Shown here in pieces: positions 18,739 through 26,175 of a DNA stretch of 32,000 nucleotides (position 1 is the first letter of the stretch; the number at the start of each line of letters is the position of its first letter). Under the pieces are notes generated by a model. The model was given only the letters and a program-made list of their open reading frames with translations. It was not told the DNA's origin and searched no databases. The translations under genes and the position numbers were made by a program. Source of the DNA: Candidatus Syntropharchaeum caldarium (lineage in GTDB: Archaea > Halobacteriota > Syntropharchaeia > Syntropharchaeales > Syntropharchaeaceae); the NCBI GenBank assembly GCA_001766815.1, contig LYOS01000002.1, positions 150,001 through 182,000 of the forward strand, in the 5' to 3' direction.

Positions 18739-18882
18739 ATGCCGAGAAAGAGTGTTAAGTGTCCAGTCTGTGGAAAGAAGGTCGATGTATTTGGTGCTGA
18801 TTCAAACTACATAAAACATGTGCAGAATGGAAGTGGTACGTTCTACCATGAGAAGTGTTTTGAGAAGCGGGAGATAGATTAA
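18739..18882 (+). CDS. Small zinc-ribbon-like protein (47 aa), absent from the ORF track
   Basis: ATG at 18739, TAA at 18880-18882. The translation is MPRKSVKCPVCGKKVDVFGADSNYIKHVQNGSGTFYHEKCFEKREID, with CPxC plus H..C as four potential zinc ligands. Composition is host-like. Confidence 0.4.
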   Translation: MPRKSVKCPVCGKKVDVFGADSNYIKHVQNGSGTFYHEKCFEKREID

Positions 18883-18930: not shown

Positions 18931-19060
18931 AGCCAGGTTGTGCTATTTGGGGGGAGATACGTGTGGGGGTAAGATAAGGAGAATTTGGGGCGCCGATGGC
19001 GGTCGTTTTGCAACTCCTTTGTCTACTTCGAAGTATGTTATATGAAATTGCTTGGCGGAT
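18931..19060 (+). repeat. Island boundary repeat copy D (GC-rich, hairpin-forming; 3' core GTATGTTATATGAAAT)
   Basis: This copy shares GCAACTCCTTT...GTATGTTATATGAAAT with copy B; the 16-mer at 19033-19048 is identical to 23774-23789. An internal imperfect hairpin pairs GTAAGATAAGGAG with CTCCTTTGTCTAC. The 5' limit is uncertain. Confidence 0.5.
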
Positions 19061-19103
19061 GAACAATAAATTTAAAAGAAACAAAAGCTTATAGGTGAAA
19101 GTA

Positions 19104-20520
19104 ATGAAAACGCTTTATGATACAAAACAAGCAACTTTGTTTGGTGAAAAGACTCTCGAACAAGAATACTTAGAGTTAATTAATGGTGAGTATGGCTTCT
19201 CTAAACAAATTGACATTTTAGATAAAATTGATTGGGATTTTAAAGATTTTAGTACTCAATATCTCACACACAAATTTCACTCATATCCTGCAAGATTTAT
19301 ACCTCAAATCCCTTTAACTTTTATTAAAATATTTACTAGAGAGGGAGATACGGTTTTAGATCCTATGTGTGGTTGTGGAACAACGCTGGTTGAAGCATTT
19401 CTAAACAATAGAAATTCCATCGGAAATGACTTTAATCCTCTTGCAGTTCTGATAAGTAAAGTAAAAACTACATTAATTGATGAGACTGAGTTTAGATATT
19501 TGAATAAAAAATTGGCTGTTATGAAACAAACGATATTTAGACTTAGATTATCGAAGAATCGAAAATAGAGTAGAGAATCTACCAAACAGAAAGATTAGTA
19601 AAATATTTAACAGAGTAATAATCTCAAAATTAGAGTCAATCCGTGAAACTTTATTGGAAGTTAAAGAAGAAGGACATGATAACTTATACGATTTTGGAAG
19701 AGTAGCCTTATCATCAACAATTTGGTCACTGGTAGAGAACGGAGATGGAATAGATGTTGATGATTTATTTTTGAAGAGAGTAAAATCTATGAGATGCGAA
19801 TTAAATAAAATGGCTAAAGTTGTCAAAAAGGTCCCTAATGTAAGATTAATAAATGGTGATGCAAGAAAATTAGAAGTTGAAACTAATTCAATAGATCTCA
19901 TAGTAACGTCCCCGCCATATGTAAATGCTTTAGATTACTATAGAGCACATATGTACAATATGCTTTGGTTAGGTATGGATTTTGATTTATTCAGAAAGCA
20001 CGAAATTGGAGGGCATTCTCATTTTATAATCAACAGATTTAGATTGCTTTCTGAGTACTTAGGAGATATGCTCCGTTCAATGATAGAGATGAATAGAGTT
20101 TTGAAAAAAGATAAGTTATGTGTAATTGTGGTAGGTAATTCTAGTTTAGAATATGAATTAATTGAAAGTCACAAATTTTTTGCGGCAATGGCTAAGCATA
20201 TAGGATTTGAACCAATAAAAACAATTTTTAGGAATATAGATAAAACAAAGAAATATACAAGTGCAGACATTGGGAAAATTGATGATGAGTATATATTAAT
20301 AATGCAAAAAAATAATGATACAGAAGTTACAGCTGATGATGATAATTTCATTGCAGAAATCGTAAAACAACAAATGAATGGATTTAGAGAACAAATAAAG
20401 AGAATTCAGGGCACTTCAATTAGGGGAAGAAAGCCTACAAAAGAGAGATTGTTAAAAAATATTGATAAGATAAGTGAAGCAATAGAAACAATACCTCAAG
20501 ACATCAAGATAAAGGGATGA
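19104..20520 (+). pseudogene. DNA methyltransferase (N4-cytosine/N6-adenine class, SPPY motif IV) interrupted by one frameshift
   Basis: ORF 19095/19104-19568 carries FHSYPARFIP and the AdoMet motif LDPMCGCGTT. ORF 19654-20520 carries IDLIVTSPPYVNALDY. The second frame is actually open from 25 codons further up (19525) and overlaps the first. The switch from frame 0 to frame 1 must therefore lie within 19525-19565. Confidence 0.65.
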
Positions 20521-20524
20521 AAAT

Positions 20525-21250
20525 ATGAAAAAATTGATTAGTAAAATAGTCCATTCTATTTTAACTGGCGAGGATTATCGTACTTATGTCCTCGCAACGA
20601 TAAATAAAAGGTTTATTGACAAAGTGCAGGAGTTAACCACTGAGATTTTTGAATACAAAAGAAAAGGAGATGTTTGGCTAGAAAAACTATTGGATGACAC
20701 CTATGAAAAGAAGGGAAAAGAGAATAAATTTAAACTCTTATGGTTTGGCGGATTAAATGATAAGACTGTAAAAAATATGACGGGGGGAACATCTAAAAAG
20801 GAAGTGTGTTTGGATCTGGGAAAAAAGAATATCGAAGCATTTAGATTATTGTTGAGTGAGATTGAAAGTAGCGAGAATCTTTATCAAATAAGGATAATAA
20901 TTAAGAAAGATACCGAGCAAGTTGAGTTGGACGAAATAGAAAGTATAATTTTTGTTAATACTATCTCAGCAATGAAACTCACTATACAAGGAGGAGCTTG
21001 GAGCGAAGTGGGAAAGCAAACCGAAAAAAGCTTACTATTTACTATATTTCAATTGCTTAAAATTCCAGAAGAGGACTATGTTTTGATATTTGATGAGATG
21101 AAGAAAAAAGATTTAGTAGGCAATAGAGAAATTGATGCCATAATTTTTAATAGAGATAAAGAACCCCTGACTGTTGAATTGAAACTACTAGGAATAGGGA
21201 ACCCTGAGATTGGGGATGAAGCACTTGCTAGAAAAGTAGATTTGTTTTTA
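20525..21250 (+). pseudogene. 5' fragment (242 codons) of a ~399-aa PD-(D/E)xK-like protein, candidate restriction endonuclease partner, interrupted by IS630
   Basis: The gene starts 5 nt after the methyltransferase. EIDAIIFNRDKEPLTVELK fits a D...ExK nuclease core. The reading frame runs straight into the IS end, and its TAG stop (21251-21253) is supplied by the IS terminus. Confidence 0.5.
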
Positions 21251-21296
21251 TAGTCTCCTGCAAAACTTTATCTACTATCCCATCTCATTCCCTCCT

Positions 21297-21956
21297 GTGA
21301 GGGGAGAACGAATATCAATCAGGAAGTTTGAAGAGGTTGGGTCACTGTTAAAGAGCGAGAAGGATCCAGTGGTGAAGCAAAAACTCTCTTTTCTCCTGTT
21401 TGCAGGAGAAGATTGTCTGTATTTTGAAAGAGCTGTTGAGGCGACCGGTATCGATATTACAACTGGCTACACATGGATAAGGATGTGGAATGATCTGGGA
21501 TACGAAGGGCTTCTTTCAAGCCCAAATAAAGGAGGTAGACCTCCCAAGCTCACTGACGAAGATCTCGAAGATCTACGGAATATTCTGGAATCTAAGGATT
21601 ACTGGACGACAAAAGAGGTAACAGTGCTCATCAAAGAGGTCTTCATGAAGAAACTATCAGAAGATCAGGTTAGACGCATTTTGAGGGATAAGCTGGGGAT
21701 GAGACTATCAAAGCCATATCAACATGACTATAGAAGACCAGATAACGCCGAAGAGATCTTGAAAGATCGAGTGGAAGCAACTTTGAGTGAGCTTGAAACG
21801 AAAGGATACAAGAGGGAAGAAATAGCAATCGGGTTTGTAGATGAGAGTTCTCCTCAAAATACTGCCAATACGGTTAGGGTCTGGAGTTTTGGTAAGCCGC
21901 ATATAAAAAAACACCACAAGGATGAGATCCAATGCGATGGGGTTCTATCCGATTAG
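21297..21956 (+). CDS. IS630-family transposase, N-terminal part (HTH domains and first catalytic Asp)
   Basis: 219 aa starting at GTG, with GGRPPKLT and wHTH segments, then IGFVDESSPQNT (first D). It ends shortly after an A7 run at 21905-21911. Confidence 0.8.
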   Translation: MRGERISIRKFEEVGSLLKSEKDPVVKQKLSFLLFAGEDCLYFERAVEATGIDITTGYTWIRMWNDLGYEGLLSSPNKGGRPPKLTDEDLEDLRNILESKDYWTTKEVTVLIKEVFMKKLSEDQVRRILRDKLGMRLSKPYQHDYRRPDNAEEILKDRVEATLSELETKGYKREEIAIGFVDESSPQNTANTVRVWSFGKPHIKKHHKDEIQCDGVLSD

Positions 21957-22332
21957 AGGAGAAGAGGTGATAATTTTTCCTGAGAATTCAAAGATAGAGA
22001 GCTTCATTGACTTTTTGAGGGCGATACGGGCGGTTAATGATGATTACAAAGCGATTATCGTGGTACTCGATAACTTCAGCACGCACGTATCGAATAGGGT
22101 GAAAAAAGAGGCCGAGCAGCTCGGGATATATCTCGTTTACCTCCCACCATACTCGCCCGATCTCAATCCGATCGAGTTTGTATGGAAGAGCATCAAAAGA
22201 GTCATCTCGATTCTTTTTGTGGATAACGTAGAGGTTCTGAGGAGGATAATCGAAAGAACATTCAGTAGGCTTGCAGAGAGCTTATCATTTGCTAAGTCGT
22301 GGATAGAAAAATTCATCCCATCGTGGATTTAG
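21922..22332 (+). CDS. IS630-family transposase, C-terminal DDE part (frame +1 relative to the N-terminal part)
   Basis: VVLDNFSTHVS (second D) and LPPYSPDLNPIEFVWKSIK (E) give the DD..E spacing typical of IS630/Tc1. The frame is open from 21907, inside the A7 run. The stop lies within the right inverted repeat. Confidence 0.8.
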   Translation: MRSNAMGFYPIRGEEVIIFPENSKIESFIDFLRAIRAVNDDYKAIIVVLDNFSTHVSNRVKKEAEQLGIYLVYLPPYSPDLNPIEFVWKSIKRVISILFVDNVEVLRRIIERTFSRLAESLSFAKSWIEKFIPSWI

Positions 22333-22349
22333 TTTTGCGGGGGACTATA

Positions 22350-22823
22350 ATTAGAAAAAACATAAAATTTACAAAAGCAGAATCTCCTGATTTTACTATT
22401 CATACAGAAAACAAGAATATTTTTATAGAATGTGGAAGTGCTCACTTATCTAAACCAAAACTTGGCGATATTAAATATAAAATATACTCAGTAATTAATA
22501 AAAAATCGAGCAAACCATATTGTGATCCCACTACTGCCTTGTTTATTGACATTACAAATATCTACTACAACAGCTTGATAAATGAAATTTTGGTAGAAAG
22601 AGACGAAATAAGAGAAGATGTTAAAAATGCTTTGGAACATACACAATTCGGAAATGTCATTCTGTTTGCCTATATTCTAAATAAAGATTTAAATAGATTT
22701 GAATCTGTCTATATTCGAATAGACAATAAAAATACAGAGGAAACACTATTGAATTTTCTTAACGATGGTTATCCATTCAGTGAACATACAGTTTATAATT
22801 TTGCAATCCCTTCAGATAGTTAA
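22350..22823 (+). pseudogene. 3' fragment (157 codons) of the IS-interrupted ~399-aa gene
   Basis: This ORF has no start codon of its own outside the IS; the listed GTG at 22299 lies inside the IS. Removing 21251-22349 (IS plus one TA) joins ...KVDLFL to IRKNIKFTKAESPDF... in frame. Confidence 0.5.
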
Positions 22824-22837
22824 GGTGGAGGTAAAAT

Positions 22838-22953
22838 GGCATTGTTAGGCTTTCGCACAACAGCGGATAAAAGGCTTCGCTACGCCTTGCCCAAATTGCC
22901 TTCGGCAACTTCTTTTATCCGCAAAACGTTAAGTGAAATGCCCGCCATTGCCC
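22838..22953 (+). repeat. Island boundary repeat copy A (long imperfect hairpin with AAC and GTT boxes)
   Basis: Outer arms GGCATTGTTAGGCTTTCGCAC (22838-22858) and GTGAAATGCCCGCCATTGCC (22933-22952) pair with bulges. A perfect 11-bp inner stem pairs GCGGATAAAAG (22863-22873) with CTTTTATCCGC (22912-22922). The apical part contains TTGCC-TTC-GGCAA. The boxes are GCACAAC (22855-22861) and GTTAAGT (22928-22934). Confidence 0.6.
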
Positions 22954-23003
22954 TGAAAAGATTTAAAACCGAGAATGAAATAAAAAATAATAGGTGGCAA
23001 AAA

Positions 23004-23300
23004 ATGAAAAAATCACTTGATGAGATAAAAGAAATTATCGAAAAACACAAGGAAGAGCTTAAAGAAAAGTATGGTGTTAAAGAAATTGGTATCTTCGGCT
23101 CTTTTGTGAGGGGAGAAGCGAAAGAGGGCAGTGATGTTGACATACTGGTTGAATTCGAAAAACCAATAGGATTCTTTAAATTTCTCGAACTGGAGGAATA
23201 TCTGAGCAATTTGATAGGTGGAAAAGTAGACCTTGTATCTAAAAAAGCACTTAAGCCACACATTGGAAAATATATTCTTGAAGAGGTTGTAACAGTATGA
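23004..23300 (+). CDS. Minimal nucleotidyltransferase (MNT), antitoxin of a HEPN/MNT module
   Basis: 98 aa from the ATG at 23004, which is preceded by TAGGTGG. It carries GIFGSFVRGEAKEGSDVDILVEF (GS...DxD). The listed 56-codon N-terminal extension merely translates repeat copy A. Confidence 0.85.
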   Translation: MKKSLDEIKEIIEKHKEELKEKYGVKEIGIFGSFVRGEAKEGSDVDILVEFEKPIGFFKFLELEEYLSNLIGGKVDLVSKKALKPHIGKYILEEVVTV

Positions 23301-23641
23301 AAAGAACATACAGGGATTACATACTGGACATCTTGTCATCTATTCAGGAAATTGAAGAATTTGTTGAGGGTATGGACTTTGAAGAGTTCGTAAAGGATAG
23401 AAAAACTGTAAATGCTGTTATTAGAAGTCTGGAAGTGATGGGCGAGGCTGTGAAGAAAATTCCTTTAGAAATCAGGGAGAAATACCAAGAAATTCCGTGG
23501 AAATACATTGCAAGTATGAGAGATAAATTGATTCATGAATATCACGGCGTTGATTTAGAAATTGTATGGGAAGTCATAGAAAAGGAAATTCCACCTCTCA
23601 AACCCAAATTTGAAAAAATATTGGAGGAGTTGAAGGGGTGA
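23297..23641 (+). CDS. HEPN domain protein (DUF86-type), toxin of the HEPN/MNT module
   Basis: 114 aa with an ATGA overlap with the MNT gene. The RDKLIHEYHGVD segment carries the Rx4H HEPN motif. Confidence 0.85.
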   Translation: MKRTYRDYILDILSSIQEIEEFVEGMDFEEFVKDRKTVNAVIRSLEVMGEAVKKIPLEIREKYQEIPWKYIASMRDKLIHEYHGVDLEIVWEVIEKEIPPLKPKFEKILEELKG

Positions 23642-23800
23642 AGTTAAAAGGCGACAGCGAGCACTCTGCCATGCTTCGCACCTTGCCCTTCGAGTCACTT
23701 AACAGCGTGTATCTGGCTTCGGCTTACGCTCCACCCAAAGGGTGCGCTCCGCAACCTCTTCGCATACCCCGCCGTATGTTATATGAAATGGCGTCTTTAA
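23642..23800 (+). repeat. Island boundary repeat copy B
   Basis: Shared blocks are GCTTCGCACCTTGCCC (23673-23688), CAACCTCTTCGCATACCCCGCCG (23752-23774) and the 16-mer at 23774-23789. The boxes are ACTTAAC (23697-23703) and GTTATAT (23778-23784). The end arms AAAGGCGAC (23647-23655) and GGCGTCTTT (23790-23798) are complementary. Small internal hairpins are AGCGT...ACGCT and CACCC-AAA-GGGTG. Confidence 0.6.
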
Positions 23801-23819
23801 GAACATGGAGGTATAAGAA

Positions 23820-24593
23820 ATGGGAAGAAAAATCTTGAAGAACAAGCCTCTTGTAGAGGCGATTTTTGAGCTGCGATGGGAACTACAGGAGCCAGCACAA
23901 GGGATGAAAATAGATCCACATTATAAAATACTGATTGGTAGGATGTATGACAGGGTAAAAGATGAATACCCCTTCCATGAGCAGTTACCTACCGCAACTA
24001 TGCCAGACGAAATCGCAGGATATGTTGTCCAGCACAGATTTCGGAAAGATAAGGACAAGTGGCCTCTTATTCAAATAGGCCCTGGAATTGTTACTTTAAA
24101 CGATACTGAAGGATATATATGGGAAGATTTCGAAAATAGGGCATACTATCTCCTGGATACACTTTTTGAAGCGTATCCAGATGCGGAGAACAATTTGAAA
24201 CCTAATGGGTTGTTGTTAAGGTATATTGATGCCGTTGATTTTAATTATGAAAAAGAGGATATATTCACTTTCTTGAAAGATAAATTGAAAGTAACCATAC
24301 AAATGCATGGAGAACTTTTTGATGAGACTGGCGTTAGTAATTTACCTTTAGGTTTTGATTTAAAATTTTCTTTTCCCTCTGCAAAGCCTAATGGAGTAGT
24401 TCACTTGCGATTTGTCCGGGGAAAGAGAAAAGATATAGATGCCTTAATATGGGAAACCCATGTTCAATCAATTGGTGACGATGCTCCTAAAGTAAAGGAT
24501 GAAATTAGGAGGTGGGTAGTAAATGCACATGAATTGACAGATGATTGGTTTTTTAAGATGATTGAGGGAGAGTTGTTAAGGAGGTTTGAATGA
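23820..24593 (+). CDS. Uncharacterized protein, TIGR04255-like (sporadically distributed family)
   Basis: 257 aa with GGAGGT 8 nt upstream of the ATG. The N-terminus KPLVEAIFELRWEL and the ~260-aa length match my recollection of the TIGR04255 family. This was not checked against any database. Confidence 0.5.
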   Translation: MGRKILKNKPLVEAIFELRWELQEPAQGMKIDPHYKILIGRMYDRVKDEYPFHEQLPTATMPDEIAGYVVQHRFRKDKDKWPLIQIGPGIVTLNDTEGYIWEDFENRAYYLLDTLFEAYPDAENNLKPNGLLLRYIDAVDFNYEKEDIFTFLKDKLKVTIQMHGELFDETGVSNLPLGFDLKFSFPSAKPNGVVHLRFVRGKRKDIDALIWETHVQSIGDDAPKVKDEIRRWVVNAHELTDDWFFKMIEGELLRRFE

Positions 24594-24985
24594 TGTATCA
24601 ACCAACATTGCGAGATGTTACGTACCAAGGTTATCCAATTCAATATTCCTCCGCCGTAAGTTCGGAAATAGAGGAGATAGACAAAAATGACATATGGGAT
24701 AATTTATTATCTACTTTAATTCGGGAGAAACGGTTTAGAAAGCCTTCTTTATATCATAATTTGATATTTTTACTTGAAAATGATTGGTCTTCAGTTTGGC
24801 CACGTTTTGGGATAAAAAATGAAACATCGCTGATTGAAGAAAGATTCGAAAAAAGAATTCCAGAAGATATGCTGGAATTCGATATTATTGTACGGATGCC
24901 ACCGATGAAAGAGTGGGTTGCACGGTTAAAAGTGAGAAATGTAGAAAAAGCAATGCCACACATTGTAGAACCGGAGGAGATCTGA
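24590..24985 (+). CDS. Hypothetical protein (131 aa), translationally coupled to the upstream gene
   Basis: ATGA overlap with the upstream stop, and AAGGAGGT 5-12 nt upstream. I recognise no motif. Confidence 0.5.
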   Translation: MMYQPTLRDVTYQGYPIQYSSAVSSEIEEIDKNDIWDNLLSTLIREKRFRKPSLYHNLIFLLENDWSSVWPRFGIKNETSLIEERFEKRIPEDMLEFDIIVRMPPMKEWVARLKVRNVEKAMPHIVEPEEI

Positions 24986-24987
24986 CG

Positions 24988-25506
24988 ATGAAAGAATATC
25001 TTTGGTATGAGACTGTAAATGGAAAAGATGACTTGATGCAGGGAGATTTTATTAAGGAGTGTCCTATAGTAATTCCGCCTTCAGAAATATCCGACGAAGT
25101 AGAGGTTCGTATTATAAACTATGATGTAGTTACTATGAGCCAGTCATGTGATCTCATCCAACGAAAACTTGATTTAGTTTTAGTTTGTCCGATTTGGCCT
25201 CTAAGTGAATTTGAGAAGAGAAGTGACTTTTTCAAAAGTAGAAAAGGAAAAGAAGCACTAAGACAAGGGAATGTCCATGGATACCACTTATTAAACAAAT
25301 GTGAAATAGATGGATTCGAAACGGAGTATTTAGTTGTTGATTTCCGTAGTGTTTATAGTGTCCCTTTTGATTTCCTTGTAGAATTATCCCAAAAGAGGGG
25401 TACAAGGCTGCGTCTACTCCCACCTTACAGAGAACATTTATCTCAAGCTTTTGCAAGATTCTTCATGAGAGTTGGATTGCCTGTTGATATACCTCCATTT
25501 AAATGA
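24988..25506 (+). CDS. Hypothetical protein (172 aa), third gene of the operon
   Basis: The ATG at 24988 lies 2 nt after the upstream stop, with GGAGGAG upstream; the listed start at 24913 is an overlap artefact. QGDFI...VVTMSQSCDL....LDLVLVCPIWP loosely recalls the GD...VVxSxx....xVVAPIT pattern of PemK/MazF-like SH3 toxins. This resemblance is very tentative. Confidence 0.45.
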   Translation: MKEYLWYETVNGKDDLMQGDFIKECPIVIPPSEISDEVEVRIINYDVVTMSQSCDLIQRKLDLVLVCPIWPLSEFEKRSDFFKSRKGKEALRQGNVHGYHLLNKCEIDGFETEYLVVDFRSVYSVPFDFLVELSQKRGTRLRLLPPYREHLSQAFARFFMRVGLPVDIPPFK

Positions 25507-25512
25507 TGGATA

Positions 25513-25706
25513 TGAAAGACGCCACCGCCACTTCATATAACAGAGCATATACGCTATGGGCTAACGCCCTTGCCCTTCGGGTCATTGCCCCCTTCGGTCG
25601 CAACGTCGTATATGCTAGAAACGATAAGCAAAATTCGCACCACCTATGGCGGACGCTTCACAACCCCTTCACATACCCCACCGCCCGTTACCTCCAATTA
25701 CCTGCT
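25513..25706 (+). repeat. Island boundary repeat copy C
   Basis: The 5' arm is AAAGACGCCA (25515-25524), then CCGCCAC, then TTCATATAACA (25532-42). Next come CGCCCTTGCCCTTCGG (25566-25580) with a tandem TTGCCC(CC)TTCGG subrepeat, and CAACCCCTTCACATACCCCACCG (25661-25683). The boxes are ATATAAC (25535-25541) and GTTACCT (25687-25693). Confidence 0.6.
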
Positions 25707-25721
25707 ATGAGATGATCTAAA

Positions 25722-26108
25722 ATGGAAATATCAGGGTACTCGGAAAGAGGAGTAATTAACTCACTATTCCATGAGATAAATTTTTCTCAGAATAATTTAC
25801 AGCTTCTCAATGATTTTTTATCTTTGGTTTCTTTTCCATATCGGACAGTCGTTTTTCAAATATCTGATGCTAAGATATTGATTGAGCAGTCTTTTTCTGA
25901 TTTCGGGGATGCAGATGCGGTGATTCTGGTTAATAATCAAGGTGATAAAGAAGCTGTTTTTATTGAAGCAAAGGTTAAGACTTCTCAAAAACCTTATTGG
26001 AGCATCCTGGAGGAGTTTGAAGATTTCAAGATTGGGATATTAGAAATTGGGGTTACCTTTCCTGGGCTCAGGTTAAAGAATTCTGCGAAGAATATAGTCT
26101 GGGAGTAA
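25722..26108 (+). CDS. PD-(D/E)xK nuclease-like protein, probably C-terminally truncated
   Basis: 128 aa. GDADAVILVNNQGDKEAVFIEAKVK fits D...ExK. The last ~20 codons (from about 26050) lose the character of the rest, and the ORF ends at the island edge. Confidence 0.45.
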   Translation: MEISGYSERGVINSLFHEINFSQNNLQLLNDFLSLVSFPYRTVVFQISDAKILIEQSFSDFGDADAVILVNNQGDKEAVFIEAKVKTSQKPYWSILEEFEDFKIGILEIGVTFPGLRLKNSAKNIVWE

Positions 26109-26175
26109 CATTAAAAACTTTTGAATGGAATGATGGACAAATAGAGAGGTGAGGTAATTCCGTCGTTGATCAGCT

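Follow-up and report, generated by a model that had tools for sequence, protein, structure and literature searches.

What kind of system is encoded by the compact three-gene operon that occupies positions 23,820 to 25,506 of a 32,000-nucleotide stretch of contig LYOS01000002.1 (hereafter the window) from the archaeon Candidatus Syntropharchaeum caldarium? An earlier note, made from the sequence alone, had proposed that these genes, here called g1, g2 and g3 in their order of transcription, form an undescribed defence or toxin module. The reading that we favor, with a probability of roughly 55%, is that the locus is a three-component, MazEF-like toxin–antitoxin (TA)-type module carried on an integron-type gene cassette. 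The logic of MazF-type TA systems is known; what would be new is a MazF-fold toxin subfamily (g3), its modular partner (g2) and a TIGR04255 accessory protein (g1).

The coordinates and lengths of the three open-reading frames (ORFs) were reproduced as first described, together with the ATGA at 24590–24593 through which g1 and g2 overlap, the 2 nt between the g2 TGA (ending at 24985) and the g3 ATG (24988), and the GGAGG-type sites catGGAGGtataagaaATG, aAGGAGGtttgaATG and ccGGAGGAGatctgacgATG located 6–8 nt 5′ of the g1, g2 and g3 start codons. The g3 protein is 100% identical to SCAL_000728 of Candidatus Syntrophoarchaeum caldarius. For g2, the public annotation (SCAL_000727) gives just 74 amino acids (aa); the N-terminal region is conserved across loci, which supports the 131-aa form starting at 24590. 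A scan for sigma-70 promoters and terminators gave nothing informative.

Conservation of the gene set was examined in 87 loci, comprising 86 from genome, metagenome and viral collections and the window itself. A same-strand ORF ends at the start of g3 in 85 of the 87, and the order g1-g2-g3 is found in 52 of the 78 loci with room for g1. Wherever a profile hidden Markov model (HMM) detects the N-terminal region of g2, g1 nearly always adjoins (38 of 39 loci), while 21 loci that lack g1 match only through a C-terminal motif of g2, and their g2 is mostly short (66–106 aa), close to the motif alone. The same two architectures, the full trio and a short g2 followed by g3, were present in a second sample of 80 metagenome loci. 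The core of the module is g2 plus g3, with g1 as an accessory, a distinction that goes beyond the earlier note. Mean pairwise identities over 46 trios were 0.52 for g1, 0.27 for g2 and 0.60 for g3, and the three distance matrices correlate (Spearman rho 0.76–0.84), indicating that the genes travel together as a conserved, co-inherited unit in which g2 evolves fastest, at about twice the rate of g1 and g3.

The evidence that g3 resembles a toxin comes from its predicted structure. No match to g3, or to any of 60 diverse relatives, was obtained in Pfam, NCBIfam or PADLOC, its only match in PHROGs was phrog_4575 (5.8e-6), to which no function is assigned, and sequence and profile searches of the PDB with g1, g2 and g3 returned nothing. 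The AlphaFold model of g3, with a mean predicted local distance difference test score (pLDDT) of 82.8 and a predicted template modelling score (pTM) of 0.78, was compared to the PDB using Foldseek, and the top 40 matches were all MazF, Kid, PemK, MoxT or EndoA toxins, with probabilities of 0.89–1.0 and template modelling (TM) scores of 0.53–0.66 normalized to the target. The best of these had an E-value of 1e-3, a probability of 1.0 and a TM-score of 0.62 on the target, and the best matches among viral structure models were likewise PemK-like. What had been described as a faint reminiscence of MazF/PemK-type folds is thereby borne out at the level of predicted fold.

The catalytic residues of MazF are Arg29 and Thr52, and those of Kid are Arg73, Asp75 and His17. 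Alignment of the g3 family with single MazF and Kid sequences using hhalign was not significant and served for motif register only. A local alignment places the g3 motifs QGD..., VVxMSQSCDL...LVLVCP and VVDFRxV, in register, on the matching strands of Kid and EndoA. The MazF Arg and Thr positions fall on Y45 and W70-P71 of g3, and the counterpart of the Kid strand with R73/D75 carries the conserved D118 and R120, both placements being made by motif register only. In this register g3 would, therefore, be MazF-like in fold and not a canonical MazF.

Conserved residues across the g3 family include Q18-G19-D20, S51-Q52-S53-C54-D55, C67, H100, D118, R120, R140 and R142; C54, D55 and C67 are nearly invariant family-wide, and C25, H100, H150 and D118 are conserved in closer sets. 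The C-terminus had been noted as conserved-looking, and most residues of the helix LLPPYREHLSQAFARFFMRVGLP (144–165) prove to be invariant or near-invariant even among members that are ~40% identical. This Arg/His-rich helix is among the ~60 extra residues by which g3 exceeds MazF or Kid in length. An overlapping DNA or RNA element was considered as the cause of this invariance and rejected, as synonymous sites in the region are saturated, so that the constraint acts on the g3 protein and not on the nucleic acid.

The cysteines and histidines raise the question of whether g3 might instead be a peptidase, or an enzyme that modifies peptides, with a Cys/His-dependent activity and a MazF-like barrel as its scaffold; it would process g2, whose N-terminal domain would thereby be released or activated. 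C25, C54, C67, H100, H150 and D55 or D118 could make either a thiol-type active site or a site for a metal, and the g2 motif, which is conserved, extended, rich in proline and lysine and C-terminal on varied proteins, would suit a substrate. We consider this improbable, since the top 50 PDB matches include neither peptidases nor transferases, the few proteins outside the MazF family being KH-domain proteins (probability 0.14), and since the short forms of g2 have nothing to release.

The g2 protein had been described as unrecognizable, and it gave no match in Pfam, NCBIfam, PADLOC, PHROGs or the PDB sequence and profile searches. A profile search of g2 and 37 relatives found no helix-turn-helix, ribbon-helix-helix or AbrB domain. 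An iterative HMM united 79 of the 85 ORFs upstream of g3, all through a C-terminal motif of ~40 residues with the consensus lEhDivVrMPPkkrYtvkvkVksirKAkPrIVEPE, which lies directly upstream of g3 and corresponds to LEFDIIVRMPPMKEWVARLKVRNVEKAMPHIVEPEEI in the window. The same motif is found fused to a RES domain (locus L044, 367–1488), to TPR repeats (L060, 5006–5980) and to two transmembrane helices (L102, 1237–1740), each fusion being encoded directly upstream of a g3 homologue. In one further locus (L148, 469–1596) it is joined to a TIGR04255 domain, producing a g1–g2 fusion directly upstream of g3. We propose that this motif is a g3-binding, neutralizing peptide.

The assignment of g1 to the TIGR04255 family holds over nearly its whole length (137.5 bits against a cut-off of 30, E-value 6.7e-40, profile positions 2–252 of 252 in NCBIfam), with no relative found in Pfam, PADLOC or the PDB by sequence and profile searches. 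Its AlphaFold model (pLDDT 80.9, pTM 0.81) contains two beta-alpha-beta3/4-alpha repeats. Foldseek ranked TATA-binding proteins (TBP) at the top (E-values 3e-4 to 1e-3, probabilities 0.90–0.98), followed by helix-grip proteins of the START/Bet v1 type. The model may thus represent a TBP-like pseudo-dimer, a label that we hold as tentative because the TM-scores are only ~0.3. Literature searches on TIGR04255 under this and synonymous names, and on the g3 motifs, gave no match.

A link between TIGR04255 and MazF-fold proteins was also found independently, in a scan of viral contigs with g1. On one high-GC viral contig (L171, 3983–5449), a TIGR04255 gene 42% identical to g1 is followed by a 64-aa ORF, which lacks the g2 motif, and then by a canonical PemK_toxin gene (PF02452, 1.7e-16). 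The operon thus resembles the trio in that a g1 homologue leads, with a small ORF and the gene for a MazF-fold toxin after it, and differs from it in the toxin family and in the small ORF; no description of such a TIGR04255–PemK_toxin operon was found in the literature searched. On a second high-GC viral contig (L172, 674–2503), TIGR04255 precedes a 147-aa ORF and a 207-aa protein distantly similar to g3 (hhalign E-value 6.5e-5), in which the QGD and SQxC motifs are kept. A search of plasmids with g1 gave one distant TIGR04255 gene, in a prophage of a Pantoea sp. Lij88 megaplasmid (L087, 4983–6831), where it lies, with two small ORFs (189 and 149 aa), in the interval that separates the lysis genes from the gene for the small terminase subunit. 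The slot between lysis cassette and terminase is a classic prophage 'moron' or defence position. The two downstream partners were examined as possible g3 relatives and proved unrelated to g3 by hhalign.

Taken with known systems, the g2–g3 pair most closely follows MazEF and Kis-Kid (PemIK), with a small, fast-evolving gene directly upstream of, and translationally coupled to, a gene for a protein with the predicted barrel fold. The genes are co-oriented, and the rates of the two partners (0.27 vs 0.60; rho 0.84) are in keeping with the layout of type II TA systems. Unlike the toxins of those systems, g3 lies outside the PF02452 profile and carries the additional invariant helix, and, unlike their antitoxins, g2 has no AbrB, ribbon-helix-helix or other known antitoxin domain and is usually joined by a TIGR04255 gene. 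The third protein of TAC in M. tuberculosis and of the CmdTAC anti-phage system can be a stabilizer or a trigger sensor (PMC9098466, PMC11618068). The trio shares with these systems three genes and an extension of the middle protein, here at the N-terminus of g2, that tracks the third protein. Unlike the third protein of TAC, g1 is not SecB-like, judging from its fold matches, and is encoded first and not last; the toxin family is different, and the extension in TAC is at the antitoxin C-terminus.

From these likenesses, we propose that g3 is the effector of the module and would arrest growth, most likely through an RNA conserved in both Bacteria and Archaea that it would bind or cleave. Its cognate inhibitor would be g2, the conserved C-terminal ~40 residues of which would bind g3, a neutralization comparable to that in MazEF, where the C-terminal tail of MazE covers MazF. 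The variable N-terminal part of g2 may serve as a regulatory handle that docks onto g1 in the trio subfamily, and g1 in turn would stabilize g2 or sense a trigger, in a chaperone-like manner as in TAC and CmdTAC. The net outcome would be stabilization of the cassette array by addiction, possibly combined with abortive-infection defence.

Several results weigh against this proposal. The match of g3 to the MazF fold is moderate when the TM-score is normalized to the query (0.45), and none of 60 diverse g3 relatives matched the PemK/MazF (PF02452) profile. The canonical catalytic residues of MazF appear to be replaced, so that g3 may not be a canonical MazF RNase, and g3 is much more conserved than typical TA toxins. 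Autoregulation, a common property of type II TA systems, is unsupported, given that g2 and its relatives have no recognizable DNA-binding domain, and the fold assignment of g1 is based on low TM-scores. A tblastn search (E ≤ 1e-3) of 72,556 plasmids and 50,697 phage genomes found no g3 relative. Finally, the fusions of the g2 motif to RES, TPR and transmembrane segments would fit a generic g3-docking tag equally well.

This last point leads to an alternative that we regard as unlikely, in which g3 is a non-toxic docking or regulatory protein of MazF fold that recognizes the g2 motif as a tag on varied partners (the TIGR04255-linked domain, RES, TPR or membrane anchors), the locus is a signalling or assembly device and any effector resides in the partner. 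The portability of the motif, which is attached to N-terminal domains with no relation to one another, among them a RES toxin domain that seems intact, speaks for this alternative; the apparent replacement of the catalytic residues agrees with it, and the extreme conservation of g3 is more that of a hub than of a fast-evolving toxin. It accounts poorly for the commonest g1-less form of g2, which consists of the motif and a low-complexity leader and leaves only g3 as effector. The independent pairing of TIGR04255 with a genuine PemK toxin also speaks against it, as do the gene order, the overlaps and the combination of a slow g3 with a fast g2, which is the pattern of type II TA systems.

The second part of the proposal concerns how the module moves. 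The trio had been described as bracketed by repeats, and the inverted repeat TGTTATATGAAATGGCG (23777–23793)/CGCCACTTCATATAACA (25526–25542) is 94% complementary. The window shares nucleotide homology with ~20 unrelated loci from 23775–23780 up to 25542–25632, and the repeat pair is kept in Firmicutes, Dehalococcoidia, Thermoplasmatota, Methanosarcinales, Aenigmatarchaeota and others. The repeat is far from a chance occurrence, because many genomes that are unrelated have the trio enclosed by this pair. The length of the element is constant (1.75–1.82 kb), and in many loci its two ends complement each other along 16 nt.

The attC sites of integron cassettes carry an R″ core (RYYYAAC) and an R′ core (GTTRRRY) at the ends of an imperfect palindrome of 57–141 nt that includes a conserved L″/L′ stem and in which sequence is less conserved than structure. 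Across loci, the right repeat of the trio is followed by a stem of 8–12 bp, a variable loop, GGAAAC and a GTTRRRY-like box that varies from locus to locus (GTTAGGC, GTTATAC, GATAAGC and so on), giving sites of ~95–110 nt. The stem in the window has 10 bp (AGCATATACG, 25544–25553, with CGTATATGCT, 25607–25616), and in the 8-bp consensus stem, compensatory changes were present at five of the eight pairs among ten loci. A covariance model was built here from ten such sites and is distinct from a curated attC model. It matched the trio site over 25526–25637 and also matched sites outside the training set in other loci. Within the window it identified an independent, non-training site that terminates in GTTAAGTGAAATGCC, and a weak match immediately upstream of the trio that is only tentatively the attC-like site of the preceding cassette, because its score is low. 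The sites in the window, at least three of them, share one orientation and separate restriction-modification (RM), MNT-HepT and trio cassettes. An attC in an array contains its own R″, the L″/L′ stem and a hybrid R′, which would make the two ends of a cassette complementary to each other.

That the ends of the trio are integron attC-type cassette ends, a feature missed in the earlier note, seems to us an evenly balanced proposition. Archaeal integrons are mostly integrase-less arrays, in which TA and RM systems are the commonest annotated cassettes (PMC9668308). Like the TA cassettes of such arrays and of the Vibrio superintegron, the trio is self-contained, with a GTT... core on its left and a ~100-nt structured imperfect palindrome on its right, and it lies in an array together with RM and other TA cassettes. 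Unlike them, it has cores, ATATAAC and GTTATAT, that are each one position off RYYYAAC/GTTRRRY, and complementarity between its ends that extends to 16 nt and thus exceeds the 7-nt attC core. In addition, no integrase was found among selected neighbouring ORFs of the window by Pfam, and no tyrosine-recombinase signature was found in the flanks of ~170 loci using crude regular expressions, results that count further against the cassette part of the proposal.

These deviations suit a different origin of the repeats, possible but in our view the weaker explanation, by which they are the terminal inverted repeats of a non-autonomous transposon resembling a miniature inverted-repeat transposable element, mobilized in trans by, for example, an IS630-like transposase nearby, or else mRNA ends that pair to control stability or expression. 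An IS630-like DDE_3 transposase is indeed encoded in the low-GC island that holds the trio. In a Nitrospirota locus with only the g2–g3 pair (L005, 7643–8519), a left-repeat-like sequence GTTATCTGAAATTGC and the leader are retained upstream of g2. The insertion of an IS630 element is expected to give a TA duplication. No target-site duplication, and in particular no TA, was visible around the inverted repeats in the aligned loci. This, together with the attC-like hairpin sites, leads us to disfavor a transposon mobilized by the IS630-like transposase. Other evidence points the same way, as the compensated stem with its locus-variable GTTRRRY-like box corresponds to the hybrid R′ of cassette arrays and several sites in the same orientation part unrelated gene sets in the window. 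Moreover, in another locus (L132, 4001–5895) an MNT-HepT pair 57–65% identical to that of the window is located downstream of the trio, whereas in the window it is upstream, which is consistent with the shuffling of cassette order.

The distribution of g3 was as patchy as had been anticipated. Its relatives number 6,474 at the 90% clustering level and form 1,708 clusters at 50% identity, and they are encoded in at least 559 species-representative genomes spread over at least 20 bacterial and archaeal phyla in a manner that does not track phylogeny. Among bacteria, they occur in Firmicutes, Nitrospirota, Chloroflexota, Planctomycetota and bacteria of the candidate phyla radiation (CPR), and among archaea in Methanosarcinales, Methanothrix, Thermoplasmatota, DPANN and Asgard lineages, including the cultured Promethearchaeum syntrophicum MK-D1. 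One homologue (L071, 55% identity) comes from a contig that bears the label of a Klebsiella pneumoniae metagenome-assembled genome; the label may be a binning error, because tblastn found no g3 relative in the plasmid and phage collections.

The genes immediately adjoining the module are heterogeneous, and a conserved fourth gene was, therefore, rejected. Among these neighbours are both defence genes (Type III restriction, DUF499, HmaC, AbiEi, PglX, Hhe, ThsB and TOTE) and housekeeping genes. Around the trio in two loci (L168 and L169) are genes for a PLD-SNF2 helicase, a type IIG enzyme, a Schlafen-like protein and an AAA_15/DUF2813 ATPase. The defence-island setting had been noted, and the module is often found in surroundings rich in defence or TA genes, here, in these two loci and in the census of neighbours. 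No defence-system model of PADLOC v2 matched g1, g2, g3 or their variants.

Could the trio simply be housekeeping or metabolic genes that lie by chance in a variable region? The proteins are strongly conserved, and some copies sit among core genes: the g2–g3 pair of L005, which lacks g1, is between fabG and acpP of a fatty-acid synthesis operon, and another copy (L170) adjoins dnaK-dnaJ. This explanation is nonetheless very improbable. The flanks are wholly variable, the distribution across phyla is patchy and does not track phylogeny, the GC content is foreign to the host, the ends are those of a mobile element and no metabolic family was matched. One finding that had been named as refuting a defence or toxin module, placement in a metabolic or housekeeping pathway, did not emerge from any of the results.

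The spread of g3 across both domains, together with its invariant Arg/His-rich helix, suggests that its target, most plausibly RNA, is shared by Bacteria and Archaea. In a bolder version of the proposal, which we consider rather unlikely, the locus would be a sensor-coupled abortive-infection or addiction system, in which TIGR04255 detects an invader nucleic acid or protein and frees the non-canonical MazF-fold effector through the g2 handle, and the helix of the effector attacks a component common to the two domains, such as a conserved rRNA or tRNA site. A universal target would then let the cassette work after integron-mediated transfer between domains. If the TA-type reading is correct, it would provide the first functional context for two large and so far uncharacterized families, TIGR04255 and an unnamed MazF-fold family of ~1,700 clusters at 50% identity that is present in Asgard archaea, methanogens, CPR, DPANN and many other anaerobic lineages, and it would add to the MazEF repertoire a three-component system with a modular, portable neutralizing peptide. 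From the near-invariant helix of 20 residues, one would expect a target that both domains conserve, and possibly a universal mechanism of growth arrest. The locus would also offer a concrete, sequence-defined case of one cassette circulating between Bacteria and Archaea, and would make cross-domain integron transfer directly testable with a selectable (toxic) cargo. The features of the locus are collected in Table 1.

Table 1 Features of the three-gene module and of the attC-like sites in the window
Feature	Position	Strand	Description
Partial site ...GTATGTTATATGAAATTGC	19002–19052	+	Left edge of the low-GC island; weak, 11.8 bits
Independent attC-like site	22848–22942	+	34.1 bits, E-value 1.1e-6, non-training; between 174-aa ORF and MNT
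Degenerate attC-like site of MNT-HepT cassette (tentative)	23688–23792	+	Weak, 8.9 bits; ends in the left repeat of the trio
Left inverted repeat GTTATATGAAATGGCG	23778–23793	+	R′-side core GTTATAT at the cassette 5′ edge (cassette model)
5′ leader tctTTAGAAnnATGGAGGTataa	23794–23819	+	GGAGG Shine-Dalgarno at 23808–23812; leader kept across loci
g1	23820–24593	+	TIGR04255, 257 aa; adjoins g2–g3 in about two-thirds of loci
g2	24590–24985	+	131 aa, putative antitoxin; N-terminal residues 1 to ~90 detected almost only beside g1
g2 C-terminal motif LEFDIIVRMPPMKEWVARLKVRNVEKAMPHIVEPEEI	24872–24982	+	Residues 95–131; only part of g2 kept in nearly all loci
g3	24988–25506	+	172 aa, MazF/Kid/PemK-like predicted fold; putative toxin/effector
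g3 C-terminal helix LLPPYREHLSQAFARFFMRVGLP	25417–25482	+	Residues 144–165, near-invariant
Right inverted repeat CGCCACTTCATATAAC	25526–25541	+	R″-like core ATATAAC at 25535–25541
Trio attC-like site	25526–25629	+	R″-like core, stem, variable loop, AGAAAC, R′-like GATAAGC at 25623–25629

In the window, the trio is part of an island of low guanine-plus-cytosine (GC) content at ~19000–26150 (0.31–0.40 vs 0.45–0.49), which looks like an integrase-less array of gene cassettes resembling a cluster of attC sites lacking integron integrases (CALIN). The attC-like sites part a CfrBI-type RM system, a 174-aa ORF with no assigned role, MNT-HepT, the trio and a 128-aa ORF. An Rfam scan of the island gave no match. 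The operon had been placed between a HEPN/MNT pair and a nuclease-like gene, and the first of these neighbours was confirmed upstream by Pfam as MNT (PF01909, 2.6e-18) and HepT (PF01934, 7.4e-32), with a split IS630-like transposase and the CfrBI-type system further upstream. The second, the downstream 128-aa ORF (25722–26108), has no significant family match and gave only PDC-M47B of PADLOC with an E-value of 0.008. This ORF, at the right edge of the island, contains a D...D...ExK-like motif, DADAVILVNNQGDKEAVFIEAKVK, and may encode a PD-(D/E)xK nuclease in truncated form. Between it and the trio, a second partial site (25630–25721; ...CTTCACATACCCCACCGCCC followed by GTTACCTCC) is similar to the 3′ half of the site that precedes the trio (...CTTCGCATACCCCGCCGTAT followed by GTTATATG) and may be the remnant of a lost cassette.

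Some further observations concern the gene models of the island. The listed 154-aa MNT ORF (22836–23300) is over-extended, its first ~35 codons overlapping the attC-like site at 22848–22942; translation probably begins at the ATG at 23004 (MKKSLDEIKEI...), for a typical MNT protein of ~98 aa. The IS630-like transposase, located inside the cassette array, consists of two overlapping ORFs, one with HTH_32/HTH_33 (21297–21956) and one with DDE_3 (21922–22332), and represents either a frameshifted or decayed copy or a case of programmed frameshifting. The methyltransferase partner of the CfrBI-type endonuclease likewise comprises two ORFs (19095–19568 and 19654–20520), both N6_N4_Mtase, and this gene may be split or circularly permuted. 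Just beyond the left edge of the island, a small Cys-rich ORF (18740–18882; MPRKSVKCPVCGKK...HEKCFEKREID) probably encodes a zinc ribbon.

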